A stretch of 64,000 bases of DNA from an uncultured Pseudomonadales bacterium (GTDB lineage Bacteria; Patescibacteriota; Microgenomatia; UBA1400; UBA12108): assembly GCA_964347565.1 (NCBI GenBank), contig CAYFZD010000001.1:3019-67018 (forward strand), in the 5' to 3' direction. The translations under genes were made by a program, and so were the position numbers. The notes beneath the pieces were generated by a model. That model saw only the letters and a program-made list of their open reading frames with translations, did not search any database and was not told where the DNA came from. This document shows positions 29,721 to 45,699 of this stretch, piece by piece (the stretch's first letter is position 1; every line of letters begins with the position of its first letter).

Positions 29721-31320
29721 GCTCAAGTGGATCCTCATCCTCGCCACCATCCTCCGCCTATTGTGGCTCGACAAAGTCCCCCCTAGTCTCAACTGGGACG
29801 AAGTTTCCATGGGATACACGGCTTACAGTATAGGTGAGACGGGGATGGACGAATGGGGAGAAAGATTGCCAATCTTTTTCCGTTCCTACGGAGAATGGAA
29901 GTCAGCTGTCTATATTTACTTACTCGTGCCCTTTATCAAGATATTTGGACTGAGCGCCTTTGCAGTGCGACTCCCATCGGCTCTGGCGGGTATTCTCGCA
30001 GTCTATCTCACTTACTTGATAGGCCGAAAAATCTATAGTGAAAAAGTCGGTCTCTGGGCTTCTCTTTTCCTCGCCATCTCACCTTGGCATTTGTTACTCT
30101 CCCGCCCTGCCTTCGAAGCCAATGTATCCCTCACTTTGATCCTTGCCGGCCTTTTCTTTTTTCTGCGTTCATCGACCATCGTCCATTGGCCATCGACCAT
30201 TTTGTCTGGGATTTTCCTTGGCCTCGCTCCTCATACTTATAATAGCGCCAAAGTAGTAGTACCATTTTTAGTTCTCTACTTAATTTGGCAGACCAAATTT
30301 TACAAAAATATCAAACAACTTTCACTATTTGTAGTGATACTTACAGTCTTTGCCATCCCTATTATTCTCAATCTTTTTTCTGGACGTGCCCAGTTTCGCT
30401 ATTCTCAGGTCGGGGTCAGCACTGACCAATTCGGCTTAAACACTTTTGTGAATCATCGCAATAACCCTCAATTGCCCAAACTTCTTGGCAAATTAGCCTT
30501 CAATAAATATACCTATACGCTCCACTCAACCTTAAAAAACGGTTTATCCTACCTCAACCCGGCTTTTCTGCTAGTAGAGGCAGGAGATCATACCCAACAT
30601 CATCTCCCTTATCATGGCGTCCTCTATATCGGTGAGTTTGTTTTTGTTCTTTGTGGACTATATCATTTAAGCAAAAGCTCCAATCACCATTTGCGATTGT
30701 TACCTCTCGTCCTGATTTTTCTAGGCATCATCCCAGCCGCCCTCACCCGTGATGTCGGTCACGTTTTGCGCAGTATTTTGACCTTGCCGGGTTGGCAGCT
30801 CCTAGCAGGAATTGGTGTTATTGAACTTCAAAAATTGAAAACTCCGTACTTGAAAATTGTAAATTGGTTATTGGTTATTCAAATTGCTGTCTTTATGACA
30901 GCATATTTTTTCTGGTACCCCACTGCTTACGCTCGCGATTGGCAGTATGGTCTCAAAGAAACGGCTGCCTACGTACAGGAGCATGAGGGTGAGTACGAGG
31001 AAATCGTGGTCTCAAAATGGTTCGGCGAGACCCAGCTCTTTTTGGCTTTTTACAATCGCTGGGACCCTCTCTGGTATATGGAAGCCAACAAGCAAAATTT
31101 ACGCTACGAAACAGAGGGTAAGCTCTGGTTAGACCAGCTCGAAGAGTATAGTATAGGTAAATACACATTTAAGTACCTTAAATTTGGTGAACCCGTTTAC
31201 AAAAAAACGCTCTACGTCGGCAAGTTTGACGATTTTTTTGAAAATCCTCGAACCTTGGAAACGATTAATTATCCTGACGATTCGGTGGCCGTACATATTA
31301 TGGAAGGACTACCTAAATGA
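29713..31320 (+). CDS. GT-C family membrane glycosyltransferase (ArnT/PMT-like)
   Basis: Loop SLNWDEVSMGYTAYSIGETGMDEWG (DE motif), multi-TM body and C-terminal soluble domain. 8-nt overlap with upstream gene. Confidence 0.7.
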   Translation: MLKLKWILILATILRLLWLDKVPPSLNWDEVSMGYTAYSIGETGMDEWGERLPIFFRSYGEWKSAVYIYLLVPFIKIFGLSAFAVRLPSALAGILAVYLTYLIGRKIYSEKVGLWASLFLAISPWHLLLSRPAFEANVSLTLILAGLFFFLRSSTIVHWPSTILSGIFLGLAPHTYNSAKVVVPFLVLYLIWQTKFYKNIKQLSLFVVILTVFAIPIILNLFSGRAQFRYSQVGVSTDQFGLNTFVNHRNNPQLPKLLGKLAFNKYTYTLHSTLKNGLSYLNPAFLLVEAGDHTQHHLPYHGVLYIGEFVFVLCGLYHLSKSSNHHLRLLPLVLIFLGIIPAALTRDVGHVLRSILTLPGWQLLAGIGVIELQKLKTPYLKIVNWLLVIQIAVFMTAYFFWYPTAYARDWQYGLKETAAYVQEHEGEYEEIVVSKWFGETQLFLAFYNRWDPLWYMEANKQNLRYETEGKLWLDQLEEYSIGKYTFKYLKFGEPVYKKTLYVGKFDDFFENPRTLETINYPDDSVAVHIMEGLPK

Positions 31321-32090
31321 ATTTATCGATTGCCCTCGCCGTTTACAACGAAGCCGATAATCTCAGACAATGTCTCGACAGCGTCAAAGCGATTGCGGAT
31401 GAGATCGTGATCGTCGACGGGGAGTCCACCGATTCGACAGTAGCCATTGCCAAAGAGTTTGGGGCCAAAGTATTAAGTGAAGAGAATCGTCCCAACTTCC
31501 ACATCAACAAACAACACGCTATCGACGCTTGTAGCGGCGACTGGATCCTCCAGCTCGACGCCGACGAGCGCGTCTCCACTGCCTTGGCTACCGAGATCAA
31601 GCGTGTGATCAGTGACAAAATGACCAATCCTCCCTCAGCCTACTATCTCAAACGCCGCAACTATTACCTCGGACGCTGGATGAACAAGGGAGGGATGTAT
31701 CCAGACCCTGTTATCCGCCTGTTCCAAAAAGGCCAAGCAAGTCTCCCCCAAGCTAGTGTGCACGAGCTAATGTCAGTCACTGGTACCACCGCTTGGCTCC
31801 AAGAGGATCTACTCCATATCGCTGACCCCAGTTTTGCCCGCTACCTCTTGCGCAGCAACCGCTACACGACCCTCCAGGCTGAGGATTGGCTCAAAGAGGG
31901 GAAGCTGGGCACAGATACTTGGACTCTCTTGCGCTATATGATCCTCAAGCCCTTCTGGCAATTCTGCCTCATCTATTTCCGCCACAAGGGTTTTCAAGAC
32001 GGTTTTCCTGGGTTTGTTTTCGCTTGGTATTCTGGACTCCATCTGGCCAGTTCTTACGTTAAATACTGGGAAAAGAAATCGGCCAAGTAA
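31317..32090 (+). CDS. GT2 glycosyltransferase, WaaE/KdtX-like subfamily
   Basis: LSIALAVYNEADNL, IVIVDGESTDST, LDADERV and tail GFQDGFPGFVFAWYSG. ATGA overlap with upstream gene. Confidence 0.75.
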   Translation: MNLSIALAVYNEADNLRQCLDSVKAIADEIVIVDGESTDSTVAIAKEFGAKVLSEENRPNFHINKQHAIDACSGDWILQLDADERVSTALATEIKRVISDKMTNPPSAYYLKRRNYYLGRWMNKGGMYPDPVIRLFQKGQASLPQASVHELMSVTGTTAWLQEDLLHIADPSFARYLLRSNRYTTLQAEDWLKEGKLGTDTWTLLRYMILKPFWQFCLIYFRHKGFQDGFPGFVFAWYSGLHLASSYVKYWEKKSAK

Positions 32091-32091
32091 T

Positions 32092-34422
32092 ATGCGAAAA
32101 TCATGGGCCTCACATTTACCTTGGCTCTTAATAATTACTGTTGTAGCTATCTTTCTCACCCGCAATCTTTGGGGTACGCGTGCCTGGATAGAAACGCACG
32201 ATGGGATCTTTCATTTGATCAGGCAAGACGCCTTTGTCGATTCCTTCCGTAGCGGCCATTTTCCAGTTCGCTGGGCTGGCTCGCTCGATAACGGCTTTGG
32301 TCTGCCAATCTTTAACTATATATACCCGGGTCCCTACTATCTGGGGACACCACTATCACTGCTGGGACTCAGTGCCAAATGGGTGATTAAGCTGGTCGAG
32401 ATCTCACTCTATCTCTTGGGAGGAATCGGGATCTACACGCTATTTGCCCGCCGCCACAAGCTCTATGCCACCCTCTGTGCACTGCTCTATCTGACGACAC
32501 CCTATTTGCTCCTCAATCTTTTTGTGCGAGGCGCCCTAGGCGAGTTTATGGCGATCTCACTGATACCTTGGGTGTTAGTCTCCCTCATGGATATGCGCTC
32601 TCGCCAAACACTCGCTTGGTACCACCCACTCCCTTACTTCCTCTTGTTTATCAGTCACAATTTTTTGAGTTTTCTCTTTCTCCCGATATACCTCGCCATC
32701 ATATTTTTAGATCGAACTGCTCTCAAGATCGTGATCAAGAGTCTGTTTCTCTCTCTCTTACTCTCAGCCTTTTTTATAGTTCCCATGGTTTTCGAGCGTG
32801 ACTTACTCTACTCGGTTTCCACCGGCAATTTTACCTATAATTTTGCCGATCACTTTGTCTACCCCATGCAGCTTATCTACTCAAAATGGGGGATTGGTCA
32901 CTCCTATGCAGGCACGGGCGACGGGTTCTCGTTTGGACTCGGATTTGCGAATTTAGCCGTACTTTTCACCTCGTTGATCACCCTTTATCTCCGTCGAAGT
33001 CGCGATCTCTTCACTTACACAGGCCTGACTCTAATCGTTATTTTTTTCTTACTCCCTCTATCGCTCCCTATCTGGAAGATGTTACACCCTCTCCAAATCA
33101 TTCAGTTTCCCTGGCGTCTCCTGTCACTCACCACCATTACTATCCCGCTACTATCATTCTTCCTCCTAATGACGTATCACAAGTCTCGCTACCTACCCGC
33201 CGTTGCCACTGGGCTAATTGTCTTTAATCTCTATTTTGCTTCTCTTTACTCCACTCCCGCGTATTTCCAGAACAACGATCAGCTCGCTAACCAGTTATAT
33301 GTTCACTCAGGACAAACTACCACCTCATCTCGCCTGGAGATGCTACCTCGTTGGTCGCCACTTGAAGCGAGATGGATGGGGGAAGAGAACATGCGCATCG
33401 ATCAAGGTTCTTCGCAGATAACTTCCTCTAGCTCCACAGCAAGCAACCTGTCCTTTACCGCAGATGCCAACATGGAAGGCGTTGTATATCGTATTCGTCG
33501 TAATTATTTCCCCTCTTGGGTCGTCCGTGACGAGACGGGGATTAGTTATGCACTCAAGCCCACAGACGATGGAGAAATCAATTTTACAGGTAGATCTGGC
33601 CTCCACACTTACTCGGCTTATGTCGGCAGTACGAGAATCGAACTTCTAGCCAACTGGCTCAGTTTATTTACTCTTATCTATTTACTTAGTATGGCCCTAC
33701 GTCCCAAATTCAAAGATTATCTCGATTCTCGTTTTACGGGTTGGGATATCTCAATTGCCCTCCGCTATCTACCCATAGTGGATGCGCTAAAAAAAATCGC
33801 ACGTCCAAGTGACAAAATCCTCGAAGTTGGTTCCGAAATCACCGGCATTACTCCCTACTATAAGCGCCTTATTACTGGTCTAGATCAAGGCTTTGATTAC
33901 AAGAGGAGCAACAAATACTTAACACCTGTCGAGGGTAGCGCGACGAGCATGCCGTTTAAAGATCGTTCGTTCGATTACGTTATTTCTGTTGATTGTCTCG
34001 AACATATTCCCCCCAAATTACGTGCCAAAGCCGTTAAAGAAATGTTTAGAGTAGCCAAGAAGCAAATTTATCTTACCTTTCCGGTAGGCTCTCACTCTCA
34101 GAATATTGATAAAAGACTAGATCAATATTTCTACGAAAGAAACGGAGAACATTTTACCTATCTCACTGAGCACGTCGATTACGGCCTACCCGGTTTCGAC
34201 TTTATTCCAAATCTAGTAGCCGAGCATGCTGATTGGCAATTAAAAGTCCATGGTAATACAAGCACCTGGCTCTGGGTTCTCCTGCTAAAAATGGGCTTCT
34301 CTAATGTTCCTTGGCAAACGAGTATTTACAGACGTTTGCTCTTACTCCTTCCGCTCCTCAAACACTTTAATTTTGCGCCATGCTATAGGCAGTTATATAT
34401 CATTACCAGGGTTAGCGTATGA
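32092..34422 (+). CDS. Fusion: HD-motif polytopic membrane domain (family C) + C-terminal class I SAM-dependent methyltransferase
   Basis: N-terminal ~560 aa are paralogous to 12026-13480. C-terminal ILEVGSEITGITPYY...FDYVISVDCLEHIPP matches the Methyltransf_11-type motifs I and post-I. The tracked ORF start at 32014 overlaps the upstream gene; the Met at 32092 immediately follows its stop. Confidence 0.65.
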   Translation: MRKSWASHLPWLLIITVVAIFLTRNLWGTRAWIETHDGIFHLIRQDAFVDSFRSGHFPVRWAGSLDNGFGLPIFNYIYPGPYYLGTPLSLLGLSAKWVIKLVEISLYLLGGIGIYTLFARRHKLYATLCALLYLTTPYLLLNLFVRGALGEFMAISLIPWVLVSLMDMRSRQTLAWYHPLPYFLLFISHNFLSFLFLPIYLAIIFLDRTALKIVIKSLFLSLLLSAFFIVPMVFERDLLYSVSTGNFTYNFADHFVYPMQLIYSKWGIGHSYAGTGDGFSFGLGFANLAVLFTSLITLYLRRSRDLFTYTGLTLIVIFFLLPLSLPIWKMLHPLQIIQFPWRLLSLTTITIPLLSFFLLMTYHKSRYLPAVATGLIVFNLYFASLYSTPAYFQNNDQLANQLYVHSGQTTTSSRLEMLPRWSPLEARWMGEENMRIDQGSSQITSSSSTASNLSFTADANMEGVVYRIRRNYFPSWVVRDETGISYALKPTDDGEINFTGRSGLHTYSAYVGSTRIELLANWLSLFTLIYLLSMALRPKFKDYLDSRFTGWDISIALRYLPIVDALKKIARPSDKILEVGSEITGITPYYKRLITGLDQGFDYKRSNKYLTPVEGSATSMPFKDRSFDYVISVDCLEHIPPKLRAKAVKEMFRVAKKQIYLTFPVGSHSQNIDKRLDQYFYERNGEHFTYLTEHVDYGLPGFDFIPNLVAEHADWQLKVHGNTSTWLWVLLLKMGFSNVPWQTSIYRRLLLLLPLLKHFNFAPCYRQLYIITRVSV

Positions 34423-35450
34423 AAATCGCCATTTGCACTAGCCCACTCAAAAACAGCAGTAAAACGCGTGGGGTCGGGGTCTACACGCGCGAGCTCGTGA
34501 ACGCTCTACGCACCAGCTTCCCCACAGACCAGTTTATCGAGACTACGGGCAATCCCTATCAAAGCGGGATTGACCTCGTGCACTACCCCTTCTTTGATCC
34601 CTATTTTTTGACCCTGCCCTGGCGTTATTCGCTCCCCACCCTCATCACAATCCACGACCTCATTCCCCTCAAATATCCCACTCATTTCCCCGCGGGATTA
34701 CGTGGGCGACTCAAATGGGAGGTCCAAAAGATGAGGGCCCGAGCATCTGCTGGGATCATCACCGACTCTCTTAGCTCCGCAACGGATATTCAAGAGATAT
34801 TAAAAATTAAAGAAAACCGTATCCACGTGATCCCCTTGGCGTCTGCTACCGCTCGGACTGCCATGTCTCTTGCTCCTAAAATAAAAAAACTCTACCATCT
34901 TCCCGACCGCTATATTCTCTACGTAGGTGACGTCAACTGGAACAAAAATATCCCAGGACTAATCGACGCTTTCGCCAAGTTAGACAACTCCTCGACTCAT
35001 TTAGTGTTGGTGGGTAAAGTTTTTGCCGATAAGCCAGATATCCCAGAATTCAAAGTGGTGATGGAAGCCATAAAAAAATCTGGCAAATCAGAACTAATTC
35101 ATCTCATTGGCTACGTCCCTAGTCACCACCTCTCTGGGATTTACCGGGAAGCCACGCTCTACTGCCAGCCCTCCTGGGACGAGGGGTTCGGCCTCCCGAT
35201 CCTCGAGGCTATGAAAGCCGGCTGCCCGGTGGTAAGTAGTAATCGCGGCAGTCTGCCCGAGGTGGGAGGGGAGGCTGCACTTTATTTTAACCCTAGCTCA
35301 AATGAGCTCCCAGGAGTTTTACAATCACTCCTCTCCTCTCCCGCCAAGCGGGATTCACTCAAAGAGGCGGGTCTCCTCCAAGTCAAACAATTTACTTGGG
35401 ACAAAACTGCCAAACTGACCAGGGAGATTTATGCCCAAATGGTTGGTTGA
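34419..35450 (+). CDS. GT4 glycosyltransferase
   Basis: GFGLPILEAMKAGCPVVSSNRGSLPEVGGEAA signature. ATGA overlap with upstream gene. Confidence 0.85.
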   Translation: MKIAICTSPLKNSSKTRGVGVYTRELVNALRTSFPTDQFIETTGNPYQSGIDLVHYPFFDPYFLTLPWRYSLPTLITIHDLIPLKYPTHFPAGLRGRLKWEVQKMRARASAGIITDSLSSATDIQEILKIKENRIHVIPLASATARTAMSLAPKIKKLYHLPDRYILYVGDVNWNKNIPGLIDAFAKLDNSSTHLVLVGKVFADKPDIPEFKVVMEAIKKSGKSELIHLIGYVPSHHLSGIYREATLYCQPSWDEGFGLPILEAMKAGCPVVSSNRGSLPEVGGEAALYFNPSSNELPGVLQSLLSSPAKRDSLKEAGLLQVKQFTWDKTAKLTREIYAQMVG

Positions 35451-36474
35451 TATTTTCTCATCGACCATTAACCATTGGCCATTAGCCATTAGTTTTCCAT
35501 ACTACGATACTGATCTTGCCCCCTTTTATTCTCGCTTCTGGGCCACTTTTGCGCATTTTGACGGGATTCATTACTTGCGTATCGCACAACATGGATACGC
35601 CGACTGGGGTAGCCAGGCCTTTTTCCCCCTCTACCCGCTCCTAGTCCATCTACTCTCGCCCTTGTCTCCCTCGCCCCTAGCGGCAGGACTCTTTATTTCC
35701 TGGGCCTCGCTAATTTTTGCCATTGTAGGATTGCGTCGCCTTTTCCCTACTAGACCTCATTTGTTTTGGCTTGTGCTCGCTTTCCCCACGGCCTTTTTCT
35801 TTTTTACTGTTTATACCGAGTCTCTCTTTTTCGCGCTCTCTATTTGGTTTTTTGTCTTTTTATCACGTCAAAAATGGTGGCTCGCCGCTCTCCTCGCTGG
35901 TCTCGCTTCGGCCACCCGCCTGGTCGGTGTTTTCCTCGCCCTTAGTCTCTTGATCGAACTCTTCCGTCACCCATTATCCATGATCCATCGATCATTTATT
36001 GTCCTTTTCTCTGTCTCTGGACTTCTTGCCTACATGTATTTCCTATACCAGACAACCGGTGATCCACTCCTGTTCTTTCACGTCCAACCTATCTTTGGTG
36101 GAGGCAGGAGTGGGGGAGAGCTGATTCTGCTGCCCCAAGTCATATATCGCTACGCCAAAATTTTACTCACGACTAGCTACGACACTTTTGTTTTTTGGCG
36201 CTCATTTCTCGAACTTGGCTTCCTTACTTGGGCACTGTCATCTATTATTAAAAAGTTTAAAACCATACCTCTCTCTGCCAACTTCTATCTCATTCTCTCA
36301 GTTATCTTGCCCACGCTCTCTGGCTCCCTCTCATCCCTCCCTCGTTATCTCCTCGTCCTGACCCCTTGGCTATTGCCAGAGAGTAAGAGGGGGATACTGC
36401 TATACCTCGCCCTCGCCATCCCCCTGTTTGTACTTCTGATCTTACAGTTCGCAAGGGGTATATTTGTGAGCTAG
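35431..36474 (+). CDS. PIG-V-like polytopic membrane protein (family A paralog)
   Basis: HFDGIHYLRIAQHGYADWGSQAFFPLYPLLVHLLS plus about 9 TM helices. Confidence 0.6.
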   Translation: MPKWLVDIFSSTINHWPLAISFPYYDTDLAPFYSRFWATFAHFDGIHYLRIAQHGYADWGSQAFFPLYPLLVHLLSPLSPSPLAAGLFISWASLIFAIVGLRRLFPTRPHLFWLVLAFPTAFFFFTVYTESLFFALSIWFFVFLSRQKWWLAALLAGLASATRLVGVFLALSLLIELFRHPLSMIHRSFIVLFSVSGLLAYMYFLYQTTGDPLLFFHVQPIFGGGRSGGELILLPQVIYRYAKILLTTSYDTFVFWRSFLELGFLTWALSSIIKKFKTIPLSANFYLILSVILPTLSGSLSSLPRYLLVLTPWLLPESKRGILLYLALAIPLFVLLILQFARGIFVS

Positions 36475-36488
36475 GATATACTAGTTAT

Positions 36489-37574
36489 ATGAAAAAAGAT
36501 TTGTTGATCATCACGCTGCTATTCACATTTATTTCCTTGGTATTTTTTCTCTTCGCCAAAACTACGAGGGGAGGACTAGACAGTGTCTACAAAGCCTGGG
36601 ATGGGCCCAGCTATGTGATCGTCGCAGAGAGCCTCTATGTCCCCTCAGACGCTGTCTTGTACAACAGTATTCAGTCACCAGATATCCGCCCAGATTTTAC
36701 TTTCCTCCCCGCGCATTTCCCCCTTTACCCCCTCCTCATCCGGACATTCTCCCCCATTGGCTACTATCAAGCCATGCTCTTCGTCTCGCTTCTTTTTAGT
36801 CTCGCGACTCTGTTGGTCTTCTACCTGCTCGCTCGTCAACTGGGTCTCTCTGCCCCACTGCTGTTGACCTTGCCGATGATCCTCTTGCCACCCCGCTGGT
36901 TTATCATCGCCCATACCGGTAGCTCAGAACCCATTTTTTTCTTTTTTGTTTTGACCAGCCTCTTGTTTTATTTTCGTCGCCTCCCCTGGGCATCCGCGCT
37001 CGCGGCGAGCCTGGCTATGCTGACGCGTCCCCAAGGAGCTCTCCTGGGGCTCGGCTATCTCTTTATTGCTCTCATTCACCTCTACCGCTCTAGAGATCTA
37101 CGGCTCATCTTAAAGCGATACACCCAATACCTCCTCATCCCGCTCACCCTCCTCGCTGTATTTTGGTTCTATCAGCGCCAGACGGGAGATTTTTGGGCTT
37201 TCTTCTCAGCGATCTCGATTTTTCACCATTTTAGACTCAGCCTCTTCCCGACTTTTAATTTTGGGGCGCCTAATATCGAGACCTTTTGGCTTGAGGCCAA
37301 TGTGCTCTACTATTTCCTCTATCTTGCAGCCATCTTACGTTTGTATCACTCTGGTAAGTGGCAATTGGGGACCATCGGTCTCGTCTTTTATCTACCTCTT
37401 TTATTCCTCCAACACACCGACATCAGTCGCTACGCACTCCCCCTGATGCCGCTGGTCTTTATCGCTTTTGCGCAAGGTATGGCGAGCATGCCATTCAACC
37501 TCGCCACCATCCTCAGCATCCCGTCGATCTTCCTCTACACCACCAACTTTATTCTCTATAATCGCGCGCCCTGA
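36489..37574 (+). CDS. PIG-V-like polytopic membrane protein (family A paralog, divergent)
   Basis: AWDGPSYVIVAESLY...AHFPLYPLLIRTFSP plus about 9 TM helices. Confidence 0.55.
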   Translation: MKKDLLIITLLFTFISLVFFLFAKTTRGGLDSVYKAWDGPSYVIVAESLYVPSDAVLYNSIQSPDIRPDFTFLPAHFPLYPLLIRTFSPIGYYQAMLFVSLLFSLATLLVFYLLARQLGLSAPLLLTLPMILLPPRWFIIAHTGSSEPIFFFFVLTSLLFYFRRLPWASALAASLAMLTRPQGALLGLGYLFIALIHLYRSRDLRLILKRYTQYLLIPLTLLAVFWFYQRQTGDFWAFFSAISIFHHFRLSLFPTFNFGAPNIETFWLEANVLYYFLYLAAILRLYHSGKWQLGTIGLVFYLPLLFLQHTDISRYALPLMPLVFIAFAQGMASMPFNLATILSIPSIFLYTTNFILYNRAP

Positions 37575-37596
37575 TTTTGCTCTATAATACATATCT

Positions 37597-38364
37597 ATGT
37601 CACTCTCTCATTACGCCGAACTAGTGCGCGAGCTCTCCATCCGCGAGATCAAGGCCCGTTACAAGCAATCTGTCCTGGGTTATGCCTGGGTCATTTTGAA
37701 TCCATTTTTCCAGATGCTCGTGATGTCTTTTGTCTTCTCCAAAATCCTGCGATTCCCCACCCTCGGCGTACCCTATGCCATCTTTCTCTACGCTGGGCTC
37801 TTGCCCTGGAATTTGTTTGCTAACTCCCTAGTCAGTAGTACCAACGCTCTCGTCAGTAACGCCTCTCTACTCACGAAGATTTACTTCCCGAGGGAAATCT
37901 TCATCATTAGTACGACCCTCGCCAAGATCGTGGACTTTTTCCTCGCTTCCACAGTCTTCATTCTCTTTATGATTTTTTATCAACTCCCTATTACCTGGAA
38001 TATCCTCTGGTTCATCCCGATTTTCGCCATCCAGCAGCTCTTTACCTATGGTCTCTCTCTCATCCTCGCCTCGCTCAATCTTTTCTACCGAGACATCCAG
38101 TATGTGCTGACCCTGATCGTCATGGTCTGGATGTATTTAACTCCCGTTATCTACCCTACCGAGATCTTCCCCGAGCAATATAAGTGGATCTTCCAGCTCA
38201 ATCCCATGGCCGTGATCATCAACGCGTACAGGCAGACCATCCTGGGAGGGGGTATGCCCAATCTCACGAGTCTGGGGATCGGTCTCTTCGTTTCCCTCCT
38301 TGTCACCTTCGTTGGCATCAAACTATTTAAAAAATTAGAAGGGGTCTTTGCGGATGTAGTGTAG
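37597..38364 (+). CDS. wzm: ABC-2 type polysaccharide/teichoic-acid exporter permease (Wzm/TagG-like)
   Basis: LSIREIKARYKQSVLGYAWVILNPFFQML is the canonical ABC-2 N-terminus. 6 TM helices. Confidence 0.8.
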   Translation: MSLSHYAELVRELSIREIKARYKQSVLGYAWVILNPFFQMLVMSFVFSKILRFPTLGVPYAIFLYAGLLPWNLFANSLVSSTNALVSNASLLTKIYFPREIFIISTTLAKIVDFFLASTVFILFMIFYQLPITWNILWFIPIFAIQQLFTYGLSLILASLNLFYRDIQYVLTLIVMVWMYLTPVIYPTEIFPEQYKWIFQLNPMAVIINAYRQTILGGGMPNLTSLGIGLFVSLLVTFVGIKLFKKLEGVFADVV

Positions 38365-38397
38365 TCGCTTTGCGACATGGCTAATGATTAATGACTT

Positions 38398-38784
38398 ATG
38401 ACTAATATCGACAAAAATAAATATCTTAAGTTCGAAGAACTTCCCGTATGGAAGATTAGTTATCAACTAGCCTTGAATATTTACCGTGCTACAATGAATT
38501 TTCCAAAGGCAGAAGTATTTGGATTAACATCACAGATCAGACGATCCTCTTCTTCTGTTGGGGCAAATATTGCTGAAGGATTTTATAAAAATACTACTCC
38601 AGATCTAGTTCACTTCCTGTACATCGCACGAGGATCTGCAGGAGAAACACTACATCACCTTATGATGTCATACGATTTGAAATATATATCTGACGAGGAT
38701 TTTGTTTCTCTCAAAGACCAAGTAGAAAATACGCTTAGACAACTTTCCGCTTGGATAAAATCATTGGAAAATAAGCATCAATAG
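38398..38784 (+). CDS. Four-helix-bundle protein (23S rRNA intervening-sequence protein family)
   Basis: 128 aa. LPVWKISYQLALNIYRATMNFPK...GANIAEGF...YIARGSAGE pattern of the TIGR02436-type family. AT-rich relative to its neighbours. Inserted between wzm and wzt. Confidence 0.65.
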   Translation: MTNIDKNKYLKFEELPVWKISYQLALNIYRATMNFPKAEVFGLTSQIRRSSSSVGANIAEGFYKNTTPDLVHFLYIARGSAGETLHHLMMSYDLKYISDEDFVSLKDQVENTLRQLSAWIKSLENKHQ

Positions 38785-38785
38785 T

Positions 38786-39538
38786 ATGACCATAAATTTA
38801 GCCATCAGCCATCAGTCATCATCCATTAAAATAACTAACGTAAGTAAGTTATTTTTCAAGCAGGAGCAGAAAACGTTCAAAGAATTCTTGCCCGCCATCT
38901 TCACGGGCAAGAAAACAAGGGAGTGGTTCTGGGCACTCCAGGATATCAATCTGGAAATCAGGGCAGGGGAGACGCTCGGGATCATGGGACCCAATGGGAG
39001 CGGCAAGTCCACCCTCCTCAAGCTGATCGCTGGCGTCTCCCAGCCCACCAAAGGGACTATCACCGCGTTGGGTAGGGTAGCCCCCCTCATCGAGCTCGCG
39101 GCCGGGTTCCACCCCGAGCTCACCGGGCGCGAGAACGTTTATCTCAATGGCATCATCTTGGGTATGTCGCGCGCAGAGGTTGCGGACAAATTTAAGACCA
39201 TCGTCGATTTTGCCGAGCTTTGGGACTTTATCGACTCGCCGGTCAAGCACTACTCCTCTGGTATGTACCTGCGCCTCGCCTTTTCCGTGGCCATCCATAC
39301 TGACCCAGATATTCTCTTACTCGACGAGATCTTGGCGGTAGGGGATGAGCAGTTCCAGGCCAAATGCTTTGCCAAACTACGATCTCTCCAAAAACAAGGG
39401 AAAACCATCATCTACGTCTCACATGACAGCCAATCGGTCCGTGATTTTTGCACTAGGGCTATTCTGATTACCAAATCTAGGATAATCAAGGACGCCACCC
39501 CAAAAGTTATTTGTGATCTCTACTCTGCGCAGTCATAA
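38786..39538 (+). CDS. wzt: ABC exporter ATP-binding protein (Wzt/TagH-like, short form)
   Basis: Walker A GPNGSGKSTLLK, signature YSSGMYLRLAF and Walker B ILLLDEILAVGD. No C-terminal carbohydrate-binding extension. Confidence 0.85.
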   Translation: MTINLAISHQSSSIKITNVSKLFFKQEQKTFKEFLPAIFTGKKTREWFWALQDINLEIRAGETLGIMGPNGSGKSTLLKLIAGVSQPTKGTITALGRVAPLIELAAGFHPELTGRENVYLNGIILGMSRAEVADKFKTIVDFAELWDFIDSPVKHYSSGMYLRLAFSVAIHTDPDILLLDEILAVGDEQFQAKCFAKLRSLQKQGKTIIYVSHDSQSVRDFCTRAILITKSRIIKDATPKVICDLYSAQS

Positions 39539-40541
39539 GTTTTTCGATTGTTTTAAATATATACATCACTTTCTTGCTAGAGTCCGCGGTATATGCGAGC
39601 AAGTCTCCTCTGATCTGAACGTAATGAGCTTTCATGTATTCCAGCTTATCGTCAAAAGTAGCCAGTTTACGCAAATCTATCGACAACTGCTCGTATCCTA
39701 TGTCTGTACAATAATTTACGTTTTTTGGCTCGTAGGAGAGCGATAGAAAAGGGATCCCCATTTGAGTTGCGAATATGAGTGAATGGAGCCTCATGCCTAC
39801 CAAGTACCTGCTGGCTTTTAGCGCATCTAAGTTTGATTTAGTCGGCACACGACTAAAGTACTTCTTTAGTTCGTCTTGATCTGTTTTACCAAAAGAGCCG
39901 CTATAGAGGACTAGTGGGTAAACTTTATCAAACTTTTCTTTGACCAAACTAGCTAATTTATCCGGGTTCCACTTTGGTAAAGGGTAAAAATACTTAATCC
40001 ACGGCCTCTTCTCATACCAGCGTCCTAGTCTTTCATGCCACAGACTGTGTAATTCCAAGTCCCACCAAAACCAATCTCTCAGATTTAGTGTACAGCTATC
40101 GGTTGTTACCTCAGCACTCTTCTGATAAGGGTACATAAATGTAATATCAGGTCCAACTATAACTTTAAAGTGATCACCAAGCATCAGACTACTCTTACGG
40201 TCTCTGACATAAATAAATTCGGCCTTATTTTTTAGTACCTCCAATCCCTCCTTCATATCATCATTCAGCCCATCAGCCTCTATACTTATCCCAATACAGC
40301 CAAAGGGTTTAGTAATCTTGTTTAAAAAATCGACATACCTGCTAAAGCCCCGAAATATCAACCCGCCCCCCCCAATCAATACAAAATCACAAGAATTCAC
40401 TCTCCTTATCTCTAATATAGCCTGTAAAAACGACTTAAAGCGAATTATTTTGTGCTTGTGGAAATATTTCTTAATACAGTAATACATCCTTTCATCACCA
40501 AGATTATTGTTGCCCGACCATCCAATCAGTGCAATTTTCAT
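39507..40541 (-). CDS. Polysaccharide pyruvyl transferase (CsaB/WcaK family)
   Basis: N-terminus MKIALIGWSGNNNLGDERMYY and overall PS_pyruv_trans-like architecture. AT-rich. Confidence 0.65.
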   Translation of the reverse strand: MKIALIGWSGNNNLGDERMYYCIKKYFHKHKIIRFKSFLQAILEIRRVNSCDFVLIGGGGLIFRGFSRYVDFLNKITKPFGCIGISIEADGLNDDMKEGLEVLKNKAEFIYVRDRKSSLMLGDHFKVIVGPDITFMYPYQKSAEVTTDSCTLNLRDWFWWDLELHSLWHERLGRWYEKRPWIKYFYPLPKWNPDKLASLVKEKFDKVYPLVLYSGSFGKTDQDELKKYFSRVPTKSNLDALKASRYLVGMRLHSLIFATQMGIPFLSLSYEPKNVNYCTDIGYEQLSIDLRKLATFDDKLEYMKAHYVQIRGDLLAYTADSSKKVMYIFKTIEKLMTAQSRDHK

Positions 40542-41131
40542 ACAGAATTCTCTCCAAGCACAAAATACATTTTGTACGGCAGCCCCAATCTCTCTGCATT
40601 AATCTCACCCAAACTTACCTTCTCAAAATCATTATTCATCAGAGATGGAATGTCTTTTACCGAGTATTCGACTGCATCATCAACTCCAGGGATCTTTTTT
40701 TTATTGGATCCTTTAATTTTTTCTTTGCTATCGGTATCAGGATAGAACAGGAGAACTCTAGGGGAGATCTTAGCCAGTTTTTGCACCAACTTTGTCCGAG
40801 TAGATCCACTCACGCACTGGATCAATCCGCTATTCCACAAAAACTCAAATTTTTCTTCTATTTTAAATAGATCTCCATAGATGGTCTGACAGAGCACACC
40901 GTGGCGCTTGTATATATCTACGCTTGTCTTCAAACTGTCATCGCGGATATCGTTTAGAGTTACCTGATGCCCATCCATAGCCAAAAAATAGGAGATATGT
41001 CCCGTTCCGCTCCCCACCTCGATTATGTTAGGGTCATCACTCAGATTATCTCTAATTACGTGATATATTGCTTCACTGGCTCTCGTCCACAAGATGGGAT
41101 TGCGCATTTTGTTGTAGTAGAACATAATCAC
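40538..41131 (-). CDS. Class I SAM-dependent methyltransferase
   Basis: Motif I IIEVGSGTGHISYFLAMDGHQVTLNDI. ATGA overlap with the pyruvyl transferase gene. Confidence 0.7.
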   Translation of the reverse strand: MIMFYYNKMRNPILWTRASEAIYHVIRDNLSDDPNIIEVGSGTGHISYFLAMDGHQVTLNDIRDDSLKTSVDIYKRHGVLCQTIYGDLFKIEEKFEFLWNSGLIQCVSGSTRTKLVQKLAKISPRVLLFYPDTDSKEKIKGSNKKKIPGVDDAVEYSVKDIPSLMNNDFEKVSLGEINAERLGLPYKMYFVLGENSV

Positions 41132-41136
41132 ATTAT

Positions 41137-41775
41137 ATGATAGATTGGTTCAATTTACTTAAGCATCGCTCCTACCGCAAAGTTCAGGAAGTTAACCTAC
41201 TTTACCCCAATGAAGACTATATCTCTTCAGAACAAAATCTTAACAAAGCCGACCTTCATCGCTTTTCTTATATTTTCAAGTTGCACAAGCACTTAAAGGG
41301 GAGCATGCTCGATATCGGCTGTAATGACGGATATTTTATGCGGCATTTCCCCTGGAAATTTCACAAGTATACCGGCGTTGATTTATTTAGCATTACCAGA
41401 TACACAAAAGGAAGATACTGGCGGGAGCGGAAATACTATACCAAAAACTATCAAATTCGCTATAAACAGGGATATTTTGAGGATATTTCGGCTTCACTGG
41501 GACAATTCGACTTCATTTTCGCCGGAGAAATTATTGAACACGTCGAGGATCCGGAATTATTTTTAAAATCTGTAAAAAACAATTTGAAATCGGGTGCCAC
41601 TTGGTGTATCTCAACTCCGAATGCGATTGGGGGAGACCTACCCGAGCACAATCGTCAATTTAGCAAAAAATCACTCAACAAGCTACTGTCTAAGTATTTT
41701 ACGAAGTTCAAAATTTACGAAATCATATCTCCAGGAGATAGTTGGCCATTTTTAGTTGCGACTGGAAAGGGATAA
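41137..41775 (+). CDS. Class I SAM-dependent methyltransferase
   Basis: Motif I MLDIGCNDGYFM and post-I FIFAGEIIEHV. Confidence 0.7.
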   Translation: MIDWFNLLKHRSYRKVQEVNLLYPNEDYISSEQNLNKADLHRFSYIFKLHKHLKGSMLDIGCNDGYFMRHFPWKFHKYTGVDLFSITRYTKGRYWRERKYYTKNYQIRYKQGYFEDISASLGQFDFIFAGEIIEHVEDPELFLKSVKNNLKSGATWCISTPNAIGGDLPEHNRQFSKKSLNKLLSKYFTKFKIYEIISPGDSWPFLVATGKG

Positions 41776-41785
41776 CTTAATCAAT

Positions 41786-42508
41786 CTACGAATATTTTCG
41801 CTTAATCGCAAAAATCGCCGAAAATGACCTAAGTAATTCCATCAAATTGGCATTCGACTTGCCTTTCTCCCTATCTACAAATTTGAACGGAACTTCTACA
41901 AATCTAAAGCCATGCCGATAAAGTAGATAGAGAGTTTCGGATAATGCGATAAAGCCTTTTTGCTGGATGCGGCTGTGTACGATCAGTTTGACTGCCTCCC
42001 TTGGGTAACAGCGATAGCCATTAGTACAGTCACTAACCGGCACGTGTAAAATAGTACGGATATATGTGTTGGCAAATCTGCTCATGACCTTTCTTCTTAT
42101 TGACCAGTTCATAATTTTGCCGCCCCTGGTGTAGCGAGACGCCACCACAACAGTATTTGGTTCTCTTTTGTCCAAAATCCTAGGCATGTCCGTAGGCTTA
42201 TGGGAAAAATCGGCATCCATCTCAATAAAATACTCTATTTTTGGATTTTTGAGAGCCTCTTCAAATCCCGAGAGGACCGCCCCTCCTCGACCAGATTTTG
42301 ACCTTCTTACAATTAGAGAAACGCGACCATCTTTGTTGGATATGTACTTGCGCACTATCTCCGCGGTACCATCAGGTGAGTTGTCGTCCACAACATAGAT
42401 GTATGCACCCTCCACATTACTGCGTATTTGCTCGATCAAGTCCAGGATATTCTCCTTTTCGTTGTAGGTAGGGATTATTACCCCGATTGGTTCAAGTAAC
42501 TTCTTCAT
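41786..42508 (-). CDS. GT2 glycosyltransferase (dolichyl/polyprenyl-phosphate mannose synthase-like)
   Basis: GVIIPTYNEKENI, YVVDDNSPDGT and EMDADFSH motifs. Confidence 0.8.
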   Translation of the reverse strand: MKKLLEPIGVIIPTYNEKENILDLIEQIRSNVEGAYIYVVDDNSPDGTAEIVRKYISNKDGRVSLIVRRSKSGRGGAVLSGFEEALKNPKIEYFIEMDADFSHKPTDMPRILDKREPNTVVVASRYTRGGKIMNWSIRRKVMSRFANTYIRTILHVPVSDCTNGYRCYPREAVKLIVHSRIQQKGFIALSETLYLLYRHGFRFVEVPFKFVDREKGKSNANLMELLRSFSAIFAIKRKYS

Positions 42509-42518
42509 ACGTTTCTCG

Positions 42519-43703
42519 CTAAATTATAATTGGGGTAGGAAGCGGGATAATAAAATGACCCCCACTAGCCAAGTATTTTTTTTCTCGCTCAATAAAATTT
42601 TCTGCAAAAAACCACGGAAGGATCAGCATGTAATCAGGCTTCAATTTTCTGGCCTCTTCTTCAGATATGATTGGCATGCCCACACATTCCATATTCTTCC
42701 CGTATTTGTCCGGGTTTCGCTCTACGGCATAGGGGATTTGGTGGTGGTCTAGTCCACAGGTTTGCAACAAGGTACCTCCGCGAGTAGATGCTCCGTAGGC
42801 AAAAATAGTCTTCCCCTTGGATTTAAGATCGGCAACTATCTGTGTGATTGATCGCTTAACTTTATCTACTCTGCTGGCAAAACTAAATACGTTGATATTA
42901 GTTTCTTTTTTTATCATAGCTCCAACGCTATTGTCTACTTTCCGCTCACCGATACGGCAGATATAAGTTCGAATAGATCCGCCATTTAATTCGTTCTCTT
43001 CCACTTTAAAAGTCATCAGTCCATGTCGATTTAAGAGCATCTGGAGAGAAGTTAGGGAGTAATACTCCAAGTGCTCATGACAAATATTATCAAAGGCGCA
43101 GTTTTCAATCATCGACATCAGATAGTTTTGCTGAATGATAAATATCCCATTATCATTAAGGCAATCCTTAACATCATCGAGAAACTTACCCGGATCATCG
43201 AGATCATAGAACATCGAAATACAAGTAATCACTTGGAATTGAGAATCCAACGCTTCCTTATTGAAAAAGTCATAAACTATCTTATGTCTGTAACCCTTGA
43301 GCGTTTGTTTGGCGTATTTGGCAACATTTTTCGACGGGTCAATCCCCATTCGCATTAAGTCTTTTGTATACCCGCTCAGCAAGGTTCCGTCATTACAGGC
43401 GATATCCAAGACAGAGTCGCCATCTTGTACGTATTGCTCGGCCTGCTTGGCAATATCGTGCAAGTGTCGGACCATCGCGTCATTCACGCCAGACCTATAA
43501 CCATATCCATCATTCCAAAGTAGATCGGGATTTGTAGTATGTCTAAGTTGTACTAGGGTACACGCAGGGCACCTGACGAGTTCCAATGGGATTGCGACCG
43601 GATCATTACGAAAATCAACAATTTTTTGAGTTCCCAGCGAGAGTACCTCTTCCAGCTCGTCAAAGCCACACGAACGGCAGTTAGTAATGGTTTTATAGTT
43701 CAT
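42519..43703 (-). CDS. Zn-ribbon-containing SAM methyltransferase of the NDP-hexose C-methyltransferase (TylCIII-like) architecture
   Basis: N-terminal C-x2-C...C-x2-C (CRSCGFDELEEVLSLG...CPACTLVQL), central motif I VLDIACNDGT, and a C-terminal domain of about 150 aa. Size 394 aa fits the family. Confidence 0.55.
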   Translation of the reverse strand: MNYKTITNCRSCGFDELEEVLSLGTQKIVDFRNDPVAIPLELVRCPACTLVQLRHTTNPDLLWNDGYGYRSGVNDAMVRHLHDIAKQAEQYVQDGDSVLDIACNDGTLLSGYTKDLMRMGIDPSKNVAKYAKQTLKGYRHKIVYDFFNKEALDSQFQVITCISMFYDLDDPGKFLDDVKDCLNDNGIFIIQQNYLMSMIENCAFDNICHEHLEYYSLTSLQMLLNRHGLMTFKVEENELNGGSIRTYICRIGERKVDNSVGAMIKKETNINVFSFASRVDKVKRSITQIVADLKSKGKTIFAYGASTRGGTLLQTCGLDHHQIPYAVERNPDKYGKNMECVGMPIISEEEARKLKPDYMLILPWFFAENFIEREKKYLASGGHFIIPLPTPIII

Positions 43704-43730
43704 ATCCTAGTTAGTATAGAGAACAACCCC

Positions 43731-44705
43731 TTAATTTACTACCAATCGCAGTAGCTCACAATAGTACTTAGTTCCCCATGAGTTGATTTCTGTGTGAATG
43801 CTGGCGTCCGGTTTGCCACTAGACGTTGCATATTGATATAGCCCCCCGGCGGAGCTATTCCCTTGAACTCTTGCTGCCCATCCCAAAATTTGTTTTGCTT
43901 GATTTTTATACCCCACTTTCCAAAGCAATATTCCCATTTGAACAGATCCAGAAACGTAGGCAAATGTGGCTTTTGGGTAATAAGCAATATATCCATTAGG
44001 CTTTAGTCTCGGCAAAACATGTTTCTGGATAATTTTCTTTACTCGATCAATCTGCCCTAAAGCAACTAAGCCTTCAAGATAGTACGCTAGGGGGTGAGTA
44101 TAGTGGTAGTCGGCTTTGTTCATCTTTAAATTGACTAGACGCGAGGCTGTGTTGTAGTATTTTCTTTCTTTAGTCAGCTCGTACAAACTTATCAACCCCT
44201 CCGCATTTTTAACTTGAATATATGAGAAAGTACTCCCCCAATTAGATCCATCAGATGACTTTTGGTAGACAATTTTAGTATCGCGTTTCGTGTCGTAGAT
44301 CGGGAACATCAATCCGGAATCAATCTGCATCGATAACAAAAAATCTCCTGCGTGCCTAGCCGATATCAAGCAATCCTTCCGGCCGGTAGCTCTGTAAGCG
44401 TCAGTTAAACCAGTTATTATTTGTCCCGTATCAAAACTATACAACTTGTCCTTGTCATAAAAACTTGAATAACCGCCGCTTGGATGTTGTATCGATAAAA
44501 GCTTGTCTATTGCTTGTCCTACCACACTCTCATGTGACATTTGGTATCGGCAAAAGTATGATACCAGATAGCCGGTTACCTCCGGATACGGCTTAACCCA
44601 TCGGATTGACTTGTGAGACTCCAGGCTATGAGCCAAACCATAACGTATACAACTTTTCAAAAAATCCTCAGCCTGGCTCAACGAAGTACTACGATCTAAT
44701 TTCAT
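43731..44705 (-). CDS. Hypothetical protein, possible alpha/alpha-toroid repeat fold
   Basis: Repeated Gly/aromatic blocks (HPSGGYSSFY, SDGSNWGSTFSY, GNSSAGGLYQYA) are reminiscent of prenyltransferase/terpene-cyclase or (alpha/alpha)6-barrel repeats. No catalytic motif recognised. Confidence 0.35.
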   Translation of the reverse strand: MKLDRSTSLSQAEDFLKSCIRYGLAHSLESHKSIRWVKPYPEVTGYLVSYFCRYQMSHESVVGQAIDKLLSIQHPSGGYSSFYDKDKLYSFDTGQIITGLTDAYRATGRKDCLISARHAGDFLLSMQIDSGLMFPIYDTKRDTKIVYQKSSDGSNWGSTFSYIQVKNAEGLISLYELTKERKYYNTASRLVNLKMNKADYHYTHPLAYYLEGLVALGQIDRVKKIIQKHVLPRLKPNGYIAYYPKATFAYVSGSVQMGILLWKVGYKNQAKQILGWAARVQGNSSAGGLYQYATSSGKPDASIHTEINSWGTKYYCELLRLVVN

Positions 44706-45699
44706 AAATGTCTTTCAAAATATTTTCCCATCGTTTCTCCCAGGTGTGTTCTTTTAGTACTCTGCGGTAACTATTCTCTGCGATCCACTCTTGGTACTGT
44801 GGGTGTAGAAGGCAATATTGTACTGTGCGGATCAAGTCTTCCTCGCTGTGGTACCCCACAACGTCTACTCCATAAGTAAACAACGGGGCCATCTCAGTGT
44901 TAAATGAAGTCACAATACACGTACGACACGCCGCGGCCTCAAACAGTCCAACTTTTACATTATTGTATCCTGCGTAGGTTTGTGAGAATGACAAATATAT
45001 TCTCCCTGAATTAATTGCCCTCGTGTGATCCAGTCCATGGACTTCGTTACTAGATTGATCCCATCCCGAGCCGTATGTTTTAACGCTAAAGTACTCACGG
45101 AGTGCACTAACTATCTCAATCCTCTCCGGCCTAGCATGTCCCACTACCACCACGTCATATTGTTTTGATACTTTTCGTAACGGTTTATGTAGAGACGGAG
45201 AGGCTGCAAACGGCAGATGTCTATACTTGGAACTTTGCGGGTACTGTCTCTTTAGGGAGTGAAGAGAATTGGTATAAAACAAATCAAAATTATCGCCGTA
45301 AATCTGGCCGTTATCTGCAAATACGTCCGGGTCCGACAGTTCTATCCCCACGCATACTACTCTGCGGTTACTCAGCCACTCCTTGGTCTGCTCGGTTATC
45401 GCCATTCCCCCCGCATTGAGTACAACATAGTTTGGTTTGAGTTTGCCAACTAGTTTCACCAGTTTATTGTGATTTATCCACCGAATAGGGTAGGTGTGCC
45501 CTGGTCTAAGCTCCTCGCTATACCAATTCCCTGTGCTATTATCATAGATTTTTGTATCTACCAGCTCAGTGTGTCCTTTGTTCTTTAACTCCTGAGCCAT
45601 CAAATACACGACATCATTCTCTCCCATCCAGTAACTGCCAAGATGTACACCTGTTAAATTCATAAGTATTATCGTAAAATACATTATAGTATGAAACAA
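44689..45699 (-). CDS. CgeB-like glycosyltransferase (Glyco_trans_1_2 type)
   Basis: C-terminal GLFEAAACRTCIVTSF...YHSEEDL...YRRVLKEHTWEKRWENIL is typical of the CgeB/DUF3880 family. Confidence 0.55.
   Translation of the reverse strand: MFHTIMYFTIILMNLTGVHLGSYWMGENDVVYLMAQELKNKGHTELVDTKIYDNSTGNWYSEELRPGHTYPIRWINHNKLVKLVGKLKPNYVVLNAGGMAITEQTKEWLSNRRVVCVGIELSDPDVFADNGQIYGDNFDLFYTNSLHSLKRQYPQSSKYRHLPFAASPSLHKPLRKVSKQYDVVVVGHARPERIEIVSALREYFSVKTYGSGWDQSSNEVHGLDHTRAINSGRIYLSFSQTYAGYNNVKVGLFEAAACRTCIVTSFNTEMAPLFTYGVDVVGYHSEEDLIRTVQYCLLHPQYQEWIAENSYRRVLKEHTWEKRWENILKDIYEIRS

Follow-up and report, generated by a model that had tools for sequence, protein, structure and literature searches.

Introduction

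The role of the open reading frame (ORF) carried by rRNA intervening sequences (IVSs) has been a puzzle for more than thirty years, and so has the nature of the heptanucleotide repeats that occur in tandem in cyanobacteria and other bacteria. In this work, we examined a gene of the four-helix-bundle family TIGR02436/PF05635 (hereafter 4HB, for both the gene and the protein) that lies between the two genes of an ABC exporter in a 64-kb stretch of DNA (hereafter the window; contig CAYFZD010000001.1, positions 3,019 to 67,018, from an uncultured bacterium). This locus was designated as WIN, and the other loci compared were labeled L001-L171. The gene is flanked by inverted arrays of 7-nt units, and the insert is probably a hairpin element of the rRNA-IVS type, with the 4HB ORF between inverted heptamer arms, that resides in an mRNA operon.

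The closest described systems are the 23S rRNA IVSs of Coxiella burnetii and Leptospira, which hold the founding members of PF05635. The Coxiella IVS, the one precedent studied by experiment, has the S23p ORF, a 28-bp terminal stem that is cut by RNase III, and three to four tandem GACAGAT heptamers upstream of the ORF, the copy number of which varies among strains (PMC4990558). The window gene belongs to the same protein family, and the likeness extends to an ORF within terminal inverted repeats, heptamers located just 5′ of the start codon, and a patchy presence among relatives. However, the window element lies between two protein genes rather than in helix 25 or 45 of 23S rRNA, its downstream arm is translated within the exporter ATPase gene, and its stem (22 of 29 positions) is much weaker than the 28 bp of Coxiella. 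No Rfam family, rRNA included, reached its gathering score anywhere in the window.

The arms also resemble the short tandemly repeated repetitive (STRR) sequences of cyanobacteria and the GGGAATC arrays of Xanthomonas, in that all are tandem 7-nt units that lie mainly between genes and are particular to one genome or lineage. The described arrays often form inverted pairs, with 70 convergent pairs counted in X. campestris (PMC4692102). Such arrays have been treated as stand-alone repeats (G-quadruplex formers or genotyping markers), and the 4HB/S23p gene is unmentioned in the paper on Xanthomonas and Nostoc (PMC4692102), whereas the window arrays flank an ORF. The taxa overlap, as plasmid-borne 4HB genes are concentrated in the cyanobacterial genera that have heptamer repeats (Nostoc with 17 and Calothrix with 4 of 41 plasmid records). 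No general link between heptamer arrays and the 4HB family was found in the literature searched (subscription titles lay outside the search), the only connection being the single IVS of Coxiella.

A third comparison is with transposons and their MITEs (miniature inverted-repeat transposable elements), and with repetitive extragenic palindromic (REP) sequences and their paired form (REPIN) with the associated transposase (RAYT). Shared features are inverted terminal repeats, many ORF-less copies and fewer ORF-bearing ones, presence or absence at orthologous sites, and deletion derivatives. The 4HB element differs in having neither a recognizable transposase or nuclease fold nor target-site duplications, and in place of fixed terminal sequences its arms consist of tandem arrays whose length varies; no near-identical dispersed copies were seen.

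The Insert and Its Inverted Arrays

In the window, the wzm-type gene for the exporter permease (37597-38364, + strand, 255 aa, stop TAG), the 4HB gene (38398-38784, + strand, 128 aa), and the wzt-type gene for the exporter ATPase (38786-39538, + strand, 250 aa) follow one another, separated by 33 nt (38365-38397) and 1 nt (38785), in exact agreement with a first-pass annotation made from the sequence alone. The TIGR02436 membership proposed there also passed the hidden Markov model (HMM) search (119.2 bits, cutoff 24, E 9e-35), and PF05635 (23S_rRNA_IVP; 123.6 bits, cutoff 33.8) was the sole Pfam match of the protein.

The left arm (38377-38406, + strand) reads ATGGCTA ATGATTA ATGACTT ATGACTA AT and was detected by Tandem Repeats Finder (TRF) with a period of 7 and 4.3 copies (four units of ATGRYTA); its fourth unit contributes the 4HB start codon. 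The right arm (38798-38827, + strand; TT AGCCATC AGCCATC AGTCATC ATCCATT) is the reverse complement of the left, was detected by TRF at 38800-38826 with a period of 7 and 3.9 copies (four units of AGYCATC), and lies inside wzt codons 5-14. The arms are complementary at 22 of 29 positions (38377-38405 versus 38798-38826), with a score of 23 compared to 15.7 ± 2.4 for shuffled sequences (p 0.004-0.016), and the minimum free energy (MFE) fold pairs them. They are terminal inverted repeats that are able to enclose the ORF, with a weak stem.

Other period-7 arrays in the window occur within long ORFs (35465-35492, 35971-35993, 30170-30200, 5529-5557, and 19411-19442), and four of them are of the CCATYRN type like the right arm. 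The array at 35465-35492 forms codons 12-21 of a membrane protein gene that starts at 35431, directly after the stop of a GT4 gene. This array may represent a lone arm, or a small hairpin, at a further gene junction.

The Exporter Junction in Related Loci

For comparison of the junction, 80 orthologous wzm loci with 43-77% identity to wzm of WIN were retrieved. As the first-pass annotation had assumed, wzm and wzt are normally adjacent or overlapping: 43 loci in the wzm-to-wzt order have no insert, with a tblastn gap of -16 to +77 nt (at most +51 in Patescibacteria-type loci), and often the two genes overlap, with wzt starting before wzm ends. The three widest of these gaps (L067, L069, and L073) are ORF-less array hairpins. 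Approximately 25 further loci have the reversed order. The empty sites include the closest species-level relatives (L005, L006, L008, L009, and L011-L013), and the ancestral overlapping wzt start ATGTCGTCTGA (L006, L008, and L009) corresponds to ATGTAGTGTAG at the wzm end of WIN. In the wzm neighbor-joining tree, WIN pairs with L003 as its sister, and the pair is nested within loci that have an empty site. L003 has a 4HB gene (P0002) directly 3′ of wzm, with 75% identity to WIN in wzm and 71% in 4HB.

These comparisons of sequence indicate that the gene is an insert, as first proposed, and that it entered the junction once, in the common ancestor of the WIN and L003 lineages. The contrary possibility named at the time, that the gene is conserved and ancestral at this site, held in its first half, since it is conserved in L003, but not in its second, given the 43 empty junctions. 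The occupied wzm-to-wzt junctions number seven (WIN, L003, L033, L037, L051, L058, and L165); L165-L167 all hold a 4HB gene at the wzm/wzt boundary, and L061 has a weak 4HB-like ORF in the reversed wzt/wzm arrangement. The 4HB proteins of L033, L051, L058, and L165 group in a single clade, to which those of L037 and L092 are sister; the WIN/L003 protein falls in a different clade. No sign of horizontal spread between junctions was found: in every comparison, 4HB had diverged further than wzm and wzt.

The junction also holds other cargo. In L010 (6772-7651) it has an AbiEii-family toxin and a 93-aa partner, and in L014 (6856-8082) an AAA_14/DUF4143 ATPase that matches the PADLOC candidate system PDC-S01 (217 bits); both inserts are low in GC and have no heptamer arms. 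The junction of L007, a close relative, is rearranged, with a 468-aa secreted-looking protein at 6786-8192 (- strand) and only a wzt-like fragment at 8348-8536.

The wzm stop codon is TAG in all six occupied junctions examined first but in 5 of the 43 empty ones (p 3e-5), and the left arrays resemble copies of the last 7 nt of wzm. Seeding of the arrays from the host wzm end was rejected as an explanation, because wzm of L165 ends in TAA and the array type tracks the 4HB clade into unrelated sites. We retain this resemblance only as a possible microhomology effect.

Inverted Arrays Across the Family

The arms and the 4HB ORF occur together across the family sample. This sample consists of 80 metagenome loci found via the protein alone, which yielded 64 unique 4HB genes with both flanks. 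Each upstream flank was scored against the reverse complement of the downstream flank, with 125 neighboring ORFs, shuffled flanks, and mismatched pairs as controls. The median arm score is 32 for 4HB genes and 15 for each of the three controls, and a score of at least 30 is reached by 56% of 4HB genes compared to 2% of neighboring ORFs, 0% of shuffled flanks, and 5% of mismatched pairs (Mann-Whitney p 3e-17 versus neighboring ORFs and 1e-12 versus mismatched pairs). The best period is 7 in 44 upstream and 43 downstream flanks of the 64 genes, compared to 18 and 24 of the 125 controls; a minority have period 8. Polarity is fixed: in 31 of 35 loci, it is the upstream arm that is rich in G when read on the coding strand (p 3e-6). 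The arms have a median length of 29 nt, the upstream one ending ~26 nt 5′ of the start codon and the downstream one beginning ~2.5 nt past the stop. The 4HB genes are tightly wedged between their neighbors (median gaps of 51 and 45 nt), and the downstream neighbor is co-oriented in 91% of cases compared to 74% of control pairs (p 0.007).

An inverted-array arrangement was found at every other junction 4HB gene, each with its own unit: TTAGTTC/CAACCAA in L033, TAGTTGG/CCAACTA in L051, GTGACTG/CCACCAG in L165, and 13 copies of the period-8 unit AARTATAG with its complement in L037. Arrays were also found in cultured genomes, namely (GGGTGTA)n in Calothrix, (AAGGTTC)n in Riemerella, and (CAGAAKT)n in Trichormus. 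The arms are specific to 4HB: neither the AbiE nor the PDC-S01 insert found at this junction has them. Compatibility of arms between loci follows the 4HB protein tree: ATGRYTN-type units are common to WIN, L003, L168, and L169 across three unrelated contexts, and L037/L092 and L033/L051 are further such pairs.

Two loci have unusual array arrangements. In L092, two GT2 genes enclose a 4HB gene that has a period-8 array of ~490 nt (1114-1609) on its 5′ side and the complement downstream (1972-2100); the length of the array creates spurious opposite-strand ORFs of 99-163 aa. In L169, a whole ORF-less hairpin of the ATGGTCA type (3200-3330) lies directly 5′ of the 4HB gene, and a right-arm array lies past the stop of that gene; this arrangement looks like nested or tandem elements.

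Hairpins Without the ORF

Hairpins that lack the ORF were also found at the wzm/wzt junction, with self-scores of 78 in L031, which has (AAAGTCA)n/(TTTTGAC)n, 86 in L032, 79 in L060, and 69 in L076. In Acidobacteria, such ORF-less hairpins, e.g., (TGGCTAG)n...(CTAGCCA)n, are located directly 5′ of wzt in L067 (6768-6830), L069 (2632-2715), and L073 (1237-1300), and another lies directly 5′ of the wzt start in L076 (6783-6905). At L021 (6824-6922), a 4HB stub (MKKSFGDLKIWQLA; HMM E 4e-4) is fused directly to a right-hand array, and in DNA sequence it closely resembles the L165 gene at the 5′ end. The stub looks like an intermediate in a deletion process that turns ORF-bearing hairpins into ORF-less ones. 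Within one wzm clade, the full gene (L058), the stub (L021), the ORF-less hairpin (L031 and L032), and a clean junction (L048, L049, and L056) are all present, as would be expected of in situ decay of an element. By these comparisons, ORF-less hairpins far outnumber ORF-bearing ones, and at least some of them appear to derive by deletion.

Several findings weigh against interpreting the insert as an IVS-type hairpin element. The arms in the window are weak: they are 76% complementary across 29 nt, the z score of the fold is only -1.67, and just 5 bp of the outer stem remain in the centroid structure. In some elements, the arm scores are at the background level (16 in L058 and 14 in L169). Across 36 loci, arm mismatches are of the G.U type in 33 cases and of the A.C type in 31. 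Since this shows no bias, selection for pairing of the sense RNA is not supported over pairing at the DNA level or concerted evolution. A search for direct repeats in the flanks found no target-site duplication at the arm ends; the sole flanking direct repeat (25 nt, 76% identity) is within both coding regions, away from the arm ends. The first-pass annotation had proposed to look for such duplications against orthologous loci, and the footprint found instead is the pair of inverted tandem-heptamer arrays. Neither the Pfam nor the PADLOC search found a transposase, integrase, or nuclease domain in the element. The S23p protein of Coxiella appears not to be expressed (PMC4990558). Finally, in 862 kb of sequence that was not chosen for 4HB genes, 154 period-7/8 arrays were found, with 16 located within 200 nt of a 4HB gene.

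The last count suggests that the arrays could be an independent genomic feature. They might be slippage-prone repeats of the STRR type or regulatory hairpins of the host, into which 4HB genes insert or next to which they survive preferentially, with no single mobile unit. The CCATYRN-type arrays inside ordinary coding regions of the window and the description of Nostoc and Xanthomonas heptamer arrays without mention of the 4HB gene (PMC4692102) agree with this explanation. Also, the right-arm unit GCCATCA has a single occurrence at the native 5′ end of wzt in relatives with an empty site, such that the right arm could partly be amplified host sequence. However, independent arrays would not be expected to track the 4HB clade over unrelated contexts with fixed polarity, as these do. 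All 10 of the 4HB ORFs in the unselected sample have an end array detected by TRF or by eye, and the L021 stub points to an ORF-less derivative arising from an ORF-bearing copy. We consider independent arrays rather unlikely.

The Right Array and the wzt Coding Region

A tract with a unit that is not a multiple of 3, inside wzt codons 5-14, could also be a slipped-strand switch for phase variation of a surface glycan, with the 4HB gene being incidental. The sister locus has a (CATCAGC)n tract of at least four perfect units at the right-arm position, and heptamer copy number varies among Coxiella strains (PMC4990558). Both assemblies of this sister locus break inside the perfect tract at the wzt start (L003:4101-4130 and L004:902-931); the tract may exceed the assembler k-mer and vary in length, with phase variation as a possible consequence. 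However, the window tract is degenerate, with two identical units only, and two assemblies of the same locus from different samples, L001 and L002, match WIN at 100% identity over both arrays, with no length variation in this small sample. The arrays of the family are also found upstream of the ORF and in non-coding positions. A phase-variation switch is improbable on this evidence.

The 4HB Protein and Its Genomic Contexts

The AlphaFold2 model of the 4HB protein (mean predicted local distance difference test, pLDDT, 94.7) has helices at residues 16-31, 37-62, 67-93, and 99-127. All residues that are invariant in the family (F35, E39, R49, N57, I58, E60, E83, and L94, from an alignment of 45 sequences that included the window protein) are present. 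In the Foldseek search, the best match is Xcc0516 (PDB 2gsc), with template modeling (TM) scores of 0.86/0.95, a root mean square deviation (rmsd) of 0.7-0.8 Å, 40% identity, and a profile search E of 1.7e-30, followed by BT_0352 (PDB 2rld; TM 0.74/0.87, 30% identity, profile search E 7.7e-17). Both are structural-genomics members of the 4HB family, and their crystal entries have five chains each. Ranked after these is Avd (4dwl; TM 0.77/0.89), the accessory protein of diversity-generating retroelements (DGRs), and the scores drop sharply past it. Avd, which is also known from complexes with reverse transcriptase and RNA (8ub7, 8ubb, and 8ube; 2024), has the same fold as the 4HB protein (TM 0.73-0.77 query-normalized and 0.84-0.89 target-normalized, rmsd 1.7-2.1 Å), with a sequence identity of 10-12%, and is its only functionally characterized structural relative. 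The fold, the relationship to Avd, and the five-chain crystal entries suggest a nucleic-acid-binding oligomer. The protein differs from Avd proper in scoring 16.7 bits against NF033474 (DivGenRetAVD, cutoff 80). Neither a reverse transcriptase nor template/variable repeats were found among the ten neighbor genes (32014-44705), the part of the window to which the reverse transcriptase scan was confined. The protein had no PADLOC match, and membership in a defense system was rejected.

In a collection of 5.8 billion proteins, the 4HB protein of the window is almost unique, with P0002 of L003 (71% identical) as the sole close relative. The ratio of nonsynonymous to synonymous differences (pN/pS) between WIN and L003 is 0.204/0.755 (0.27) for 4HB, and the corresponding values for wzm are 0.168/0.732. 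A pS of 0.755 means that synonymous sites are saturated, and these values indicate that the protein has been under purifying selection since the WIN-L003 split.

Such selection could be expected if the protein were a dedicated accessory or regulatory partner of Wzm/Wzt that was recruited for export. At least seven wzm/wzt junction loci, the weak 4HB-like ORF in L061, the translational coupling to wzt (described below), and the clade formed by four junction 4HB proteins are in line with this idea. However, the 43 empty junctions mean that most orthologous exporters have no 4HB gene, and the same junction also takes a toxin module and a defense-type ATPase. In the protein tree, the remaining members of the WIN/L003 clade are in other operons: the L168 gene lies between a mannosyltransferase-like gene and an epimerase gene, and those of L169-L171 adjoin tsaE. 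Among cultured members, that of Riemerella is flanked by an iscA-like gene and sufB, and that of Trichormus lies within a Trb conjugation cluster; the founders of the family are inside rRNA genes. These unrelated contexts argue against a dedicated role in export, which we regard as highly improbable.

The first-pass annotation described such genes as scattered singletons. This description fits the window, which has one copy, but is not a general rule, as L051 (6792-7193, 8086-8481 on the - strand, and 11419-11802) and L115 (3998-4363, 5522-5953, and 6795-7169) have three 4HB-family genes each. The copies in these loci lie within 8-13 kb, and most of those examined have end arrays.

Composition and Age of the Insert

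The AT-rich character ascribed to the ORF in the first-pass annotation is clear. The GC contents of wzm, 4HB, and wzt are 0.486, 0.354, and 0.509, and those at third codon positions (GC3) are 0.676, 0.287, and 0.657, respectively. The whole AT-rich block (38365-38885, + strand, GC ~0.35) comprises the spacer, the arms, the 4HB ORF, and the remodeled wzt 5′ end, into which it extends for ~100 nt (GC 0.33 there). Relative to the remainder of wzt, the GC content of its first 100 nt is lower by 20.9 points; at 38 empty sites, this difference has a median of -6.8 and a 5th percentile of -17.5. However, low GC is a family-wide trait, as 91% of 53 4HB genes are below the GC of their own locus (median 6.1 points, p 1e-9), and L003 shows the same contrast (GC3 of 0.286 versus 0.672). 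For these reasons the low GC is uninformative on insertion age: the gene differs in composition from its neighbors, as the label "compositionally foreign" implied, but the difference is no sign of recency. The glycan cluster is itself a GC mosaic (~0.39-0.42 downstream of wzt at 39507-45700 and ~0.45-0.55 upstream at 34400-39500), such that the insert is not the sole low-GC segment.

Conserved synteny in L003, saturated synonymous sites, and the pN/pS of 0.27 indicate that the insert is old, inherited, and selected, being neither fresh nor ancestral to the operon. A recent horizontal gain from an AT-rich donor via ordinary transposition or recombination, to which the GC3 contrast and the lack of the gene in the closest species-level relatives by wzm identity might point, has a very slim chance given the same contrast at the same site in L003 despite saturated synonymous divergence, the persistence of low GC across the family, 4HB genes that are never more similar between loci than the host genes, and the finding of neither target-site duplication nor transposase.

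The Exporter Operon and Its Expression

The wzm product matches PF01061 (ABC2_membrane, 69.5 bits, cutoff 26.9) and the wzt product matches PF00005 (ABC_tran, 86 bits). The top NCBIfam matches of the latter are of the TagH/Wzt type, with none reaching equivalog cutoffs. The scores against exporter-type equivalogs (galactan Wzm/Wzt, TagGH, and KpsMT) are far below their cutoffs, e.g., 73.9 versus 380 and 203 versus 538, such that "wzm/wzt" is a generic label here. An ABC-2 permease and an ABC ATPase are found together inside a glycan biosynthesis cluster, as in Wzm/Wzt glycan exporters: the ten neighbor genes scanned include GT4, GT2, pyruvyl transferase, and methyltransferase genes and two genes for polytopic membrane proteins. 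The closest wzm relatives are Patescibacteria/Microgenomates metagenome-assembled genomes, which suggests that the window derives from this group. Many contigs whose wzm locus groups with these genomes (TPA_asm records that include L007-L010, L012, and L015) bear the title "uncultured Pseudomonadales" or "Gammaproteobacteria," and these titles look unreliable taxonomically.

A candidate promoter-like site, TCTACA-17-TATAAT (37534-37562, + strand, 10 of 12 matches), lies 35 nt 5′ of wzm, in a region where the count of such sites is not above shuffles. Inside the insert, no promoter or terminator was found above shuffles. The wzt start is 1 nt past the 4HB stop (TAGTATG), and there is no other in-frame start before the conserved region. 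Compared to empty-site orthologs, the wzt N-terminus has five extra residues at the array. Tight coupling of 4HB and wzt is also found elsewhere, as ATGA in L033 and L165 and as an 8-nt overlap in L051 and L058.

Three smaller structures accompany the arms. A GC hairpin, GTCGC-TTT-GCGAC (38364-38376, + strand), is located directly 3′ of the wzm stop and 5′ of the left array; its L003 version has 9 bp, TGTAGTCGC-GAA-GCGACTACA. An AT-rich hairpin, AAAATAACTAAC/GTAAGTTATTTT (38828-38855, + strand), occupies wzt codons 15-24, with 12-nt arms that are 92% complementary. Both hairpins are present in the MFE and centroid folds. Also, a perfect 10-bp inverted repeat, TTCTTGCCCG ... CGGGCAAGAA, is found in wzt (38885-38913) where the GC content steps from ~0.33 to ~0.54, and it has a terminator-like score on the minus strand.

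Discussion

If the insert is an IVS-type hairpin element, a mechanism for its residence in the operon may be proposed. The element would have no promoter of its own and would be co-transcribed from the candidate wzm promoter. Translation of wzt would proceed via termination-reinitiation at TAGTATG, and therefore production of the exporter would depend on translating the insert. In the transcript, the arms could pair and loop out the ORF, as in the rRNA IVSs, the stem of which RNase III cuts. This RNA-stem interpretation rests on the rRNA precedent rather than on the type of covariation, given the lack of G.U bias; arm pairing could matter at the DNA level instead, or the complementarity could be kept by concerted evolution. 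By analogy with Avd, we think that the 4HB bundle is a nucleic-acid binder with its own array hairpin as the likeliest ligand, and such binding would favor the persistence or spread of these elements.

A broader proposal is that the 4HB (S23p/IVS) proteins are the trans-acting factor of a widespread, unrecognized class of elements, which would have the inverted tandem-heptamer hairpin as its hallmark. The STRR sequences, the GGGAATC pairs of Xanthomonas, the rRNA IVSs, and the abundant ORF-less arrays of Patescibacteria would then be non-autonomous copies. With the array hairpin as its substrate, the protein might generate, maintain, or move the elements, and repeated copying of a heptamer template by a reverse transcriptase of the host might be involved. 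We offer this proposal as a speculation that is more likely wrong than right by a good distance.

For annotators, the low GC of 4HB genes should not be taken as a sign of recent transfer. At the exporter junction, four states can be traced (empty, occupied, truncated, and ORF-less), which provides a natural experiment; in the occupied state, an essential-looking exporter gene would be translationally dependent on the insert. The architecture, in which the 4HB gene is the loop of an inverted heptamer-array hairpin, is a more valuable result than the locus itself. In these data, the ORF of the IVSs and the heptamer repeats are physically linked, with arm scores of at least 30 in 56% of 64 genes, and through the arrays the function of the family becomes testable.

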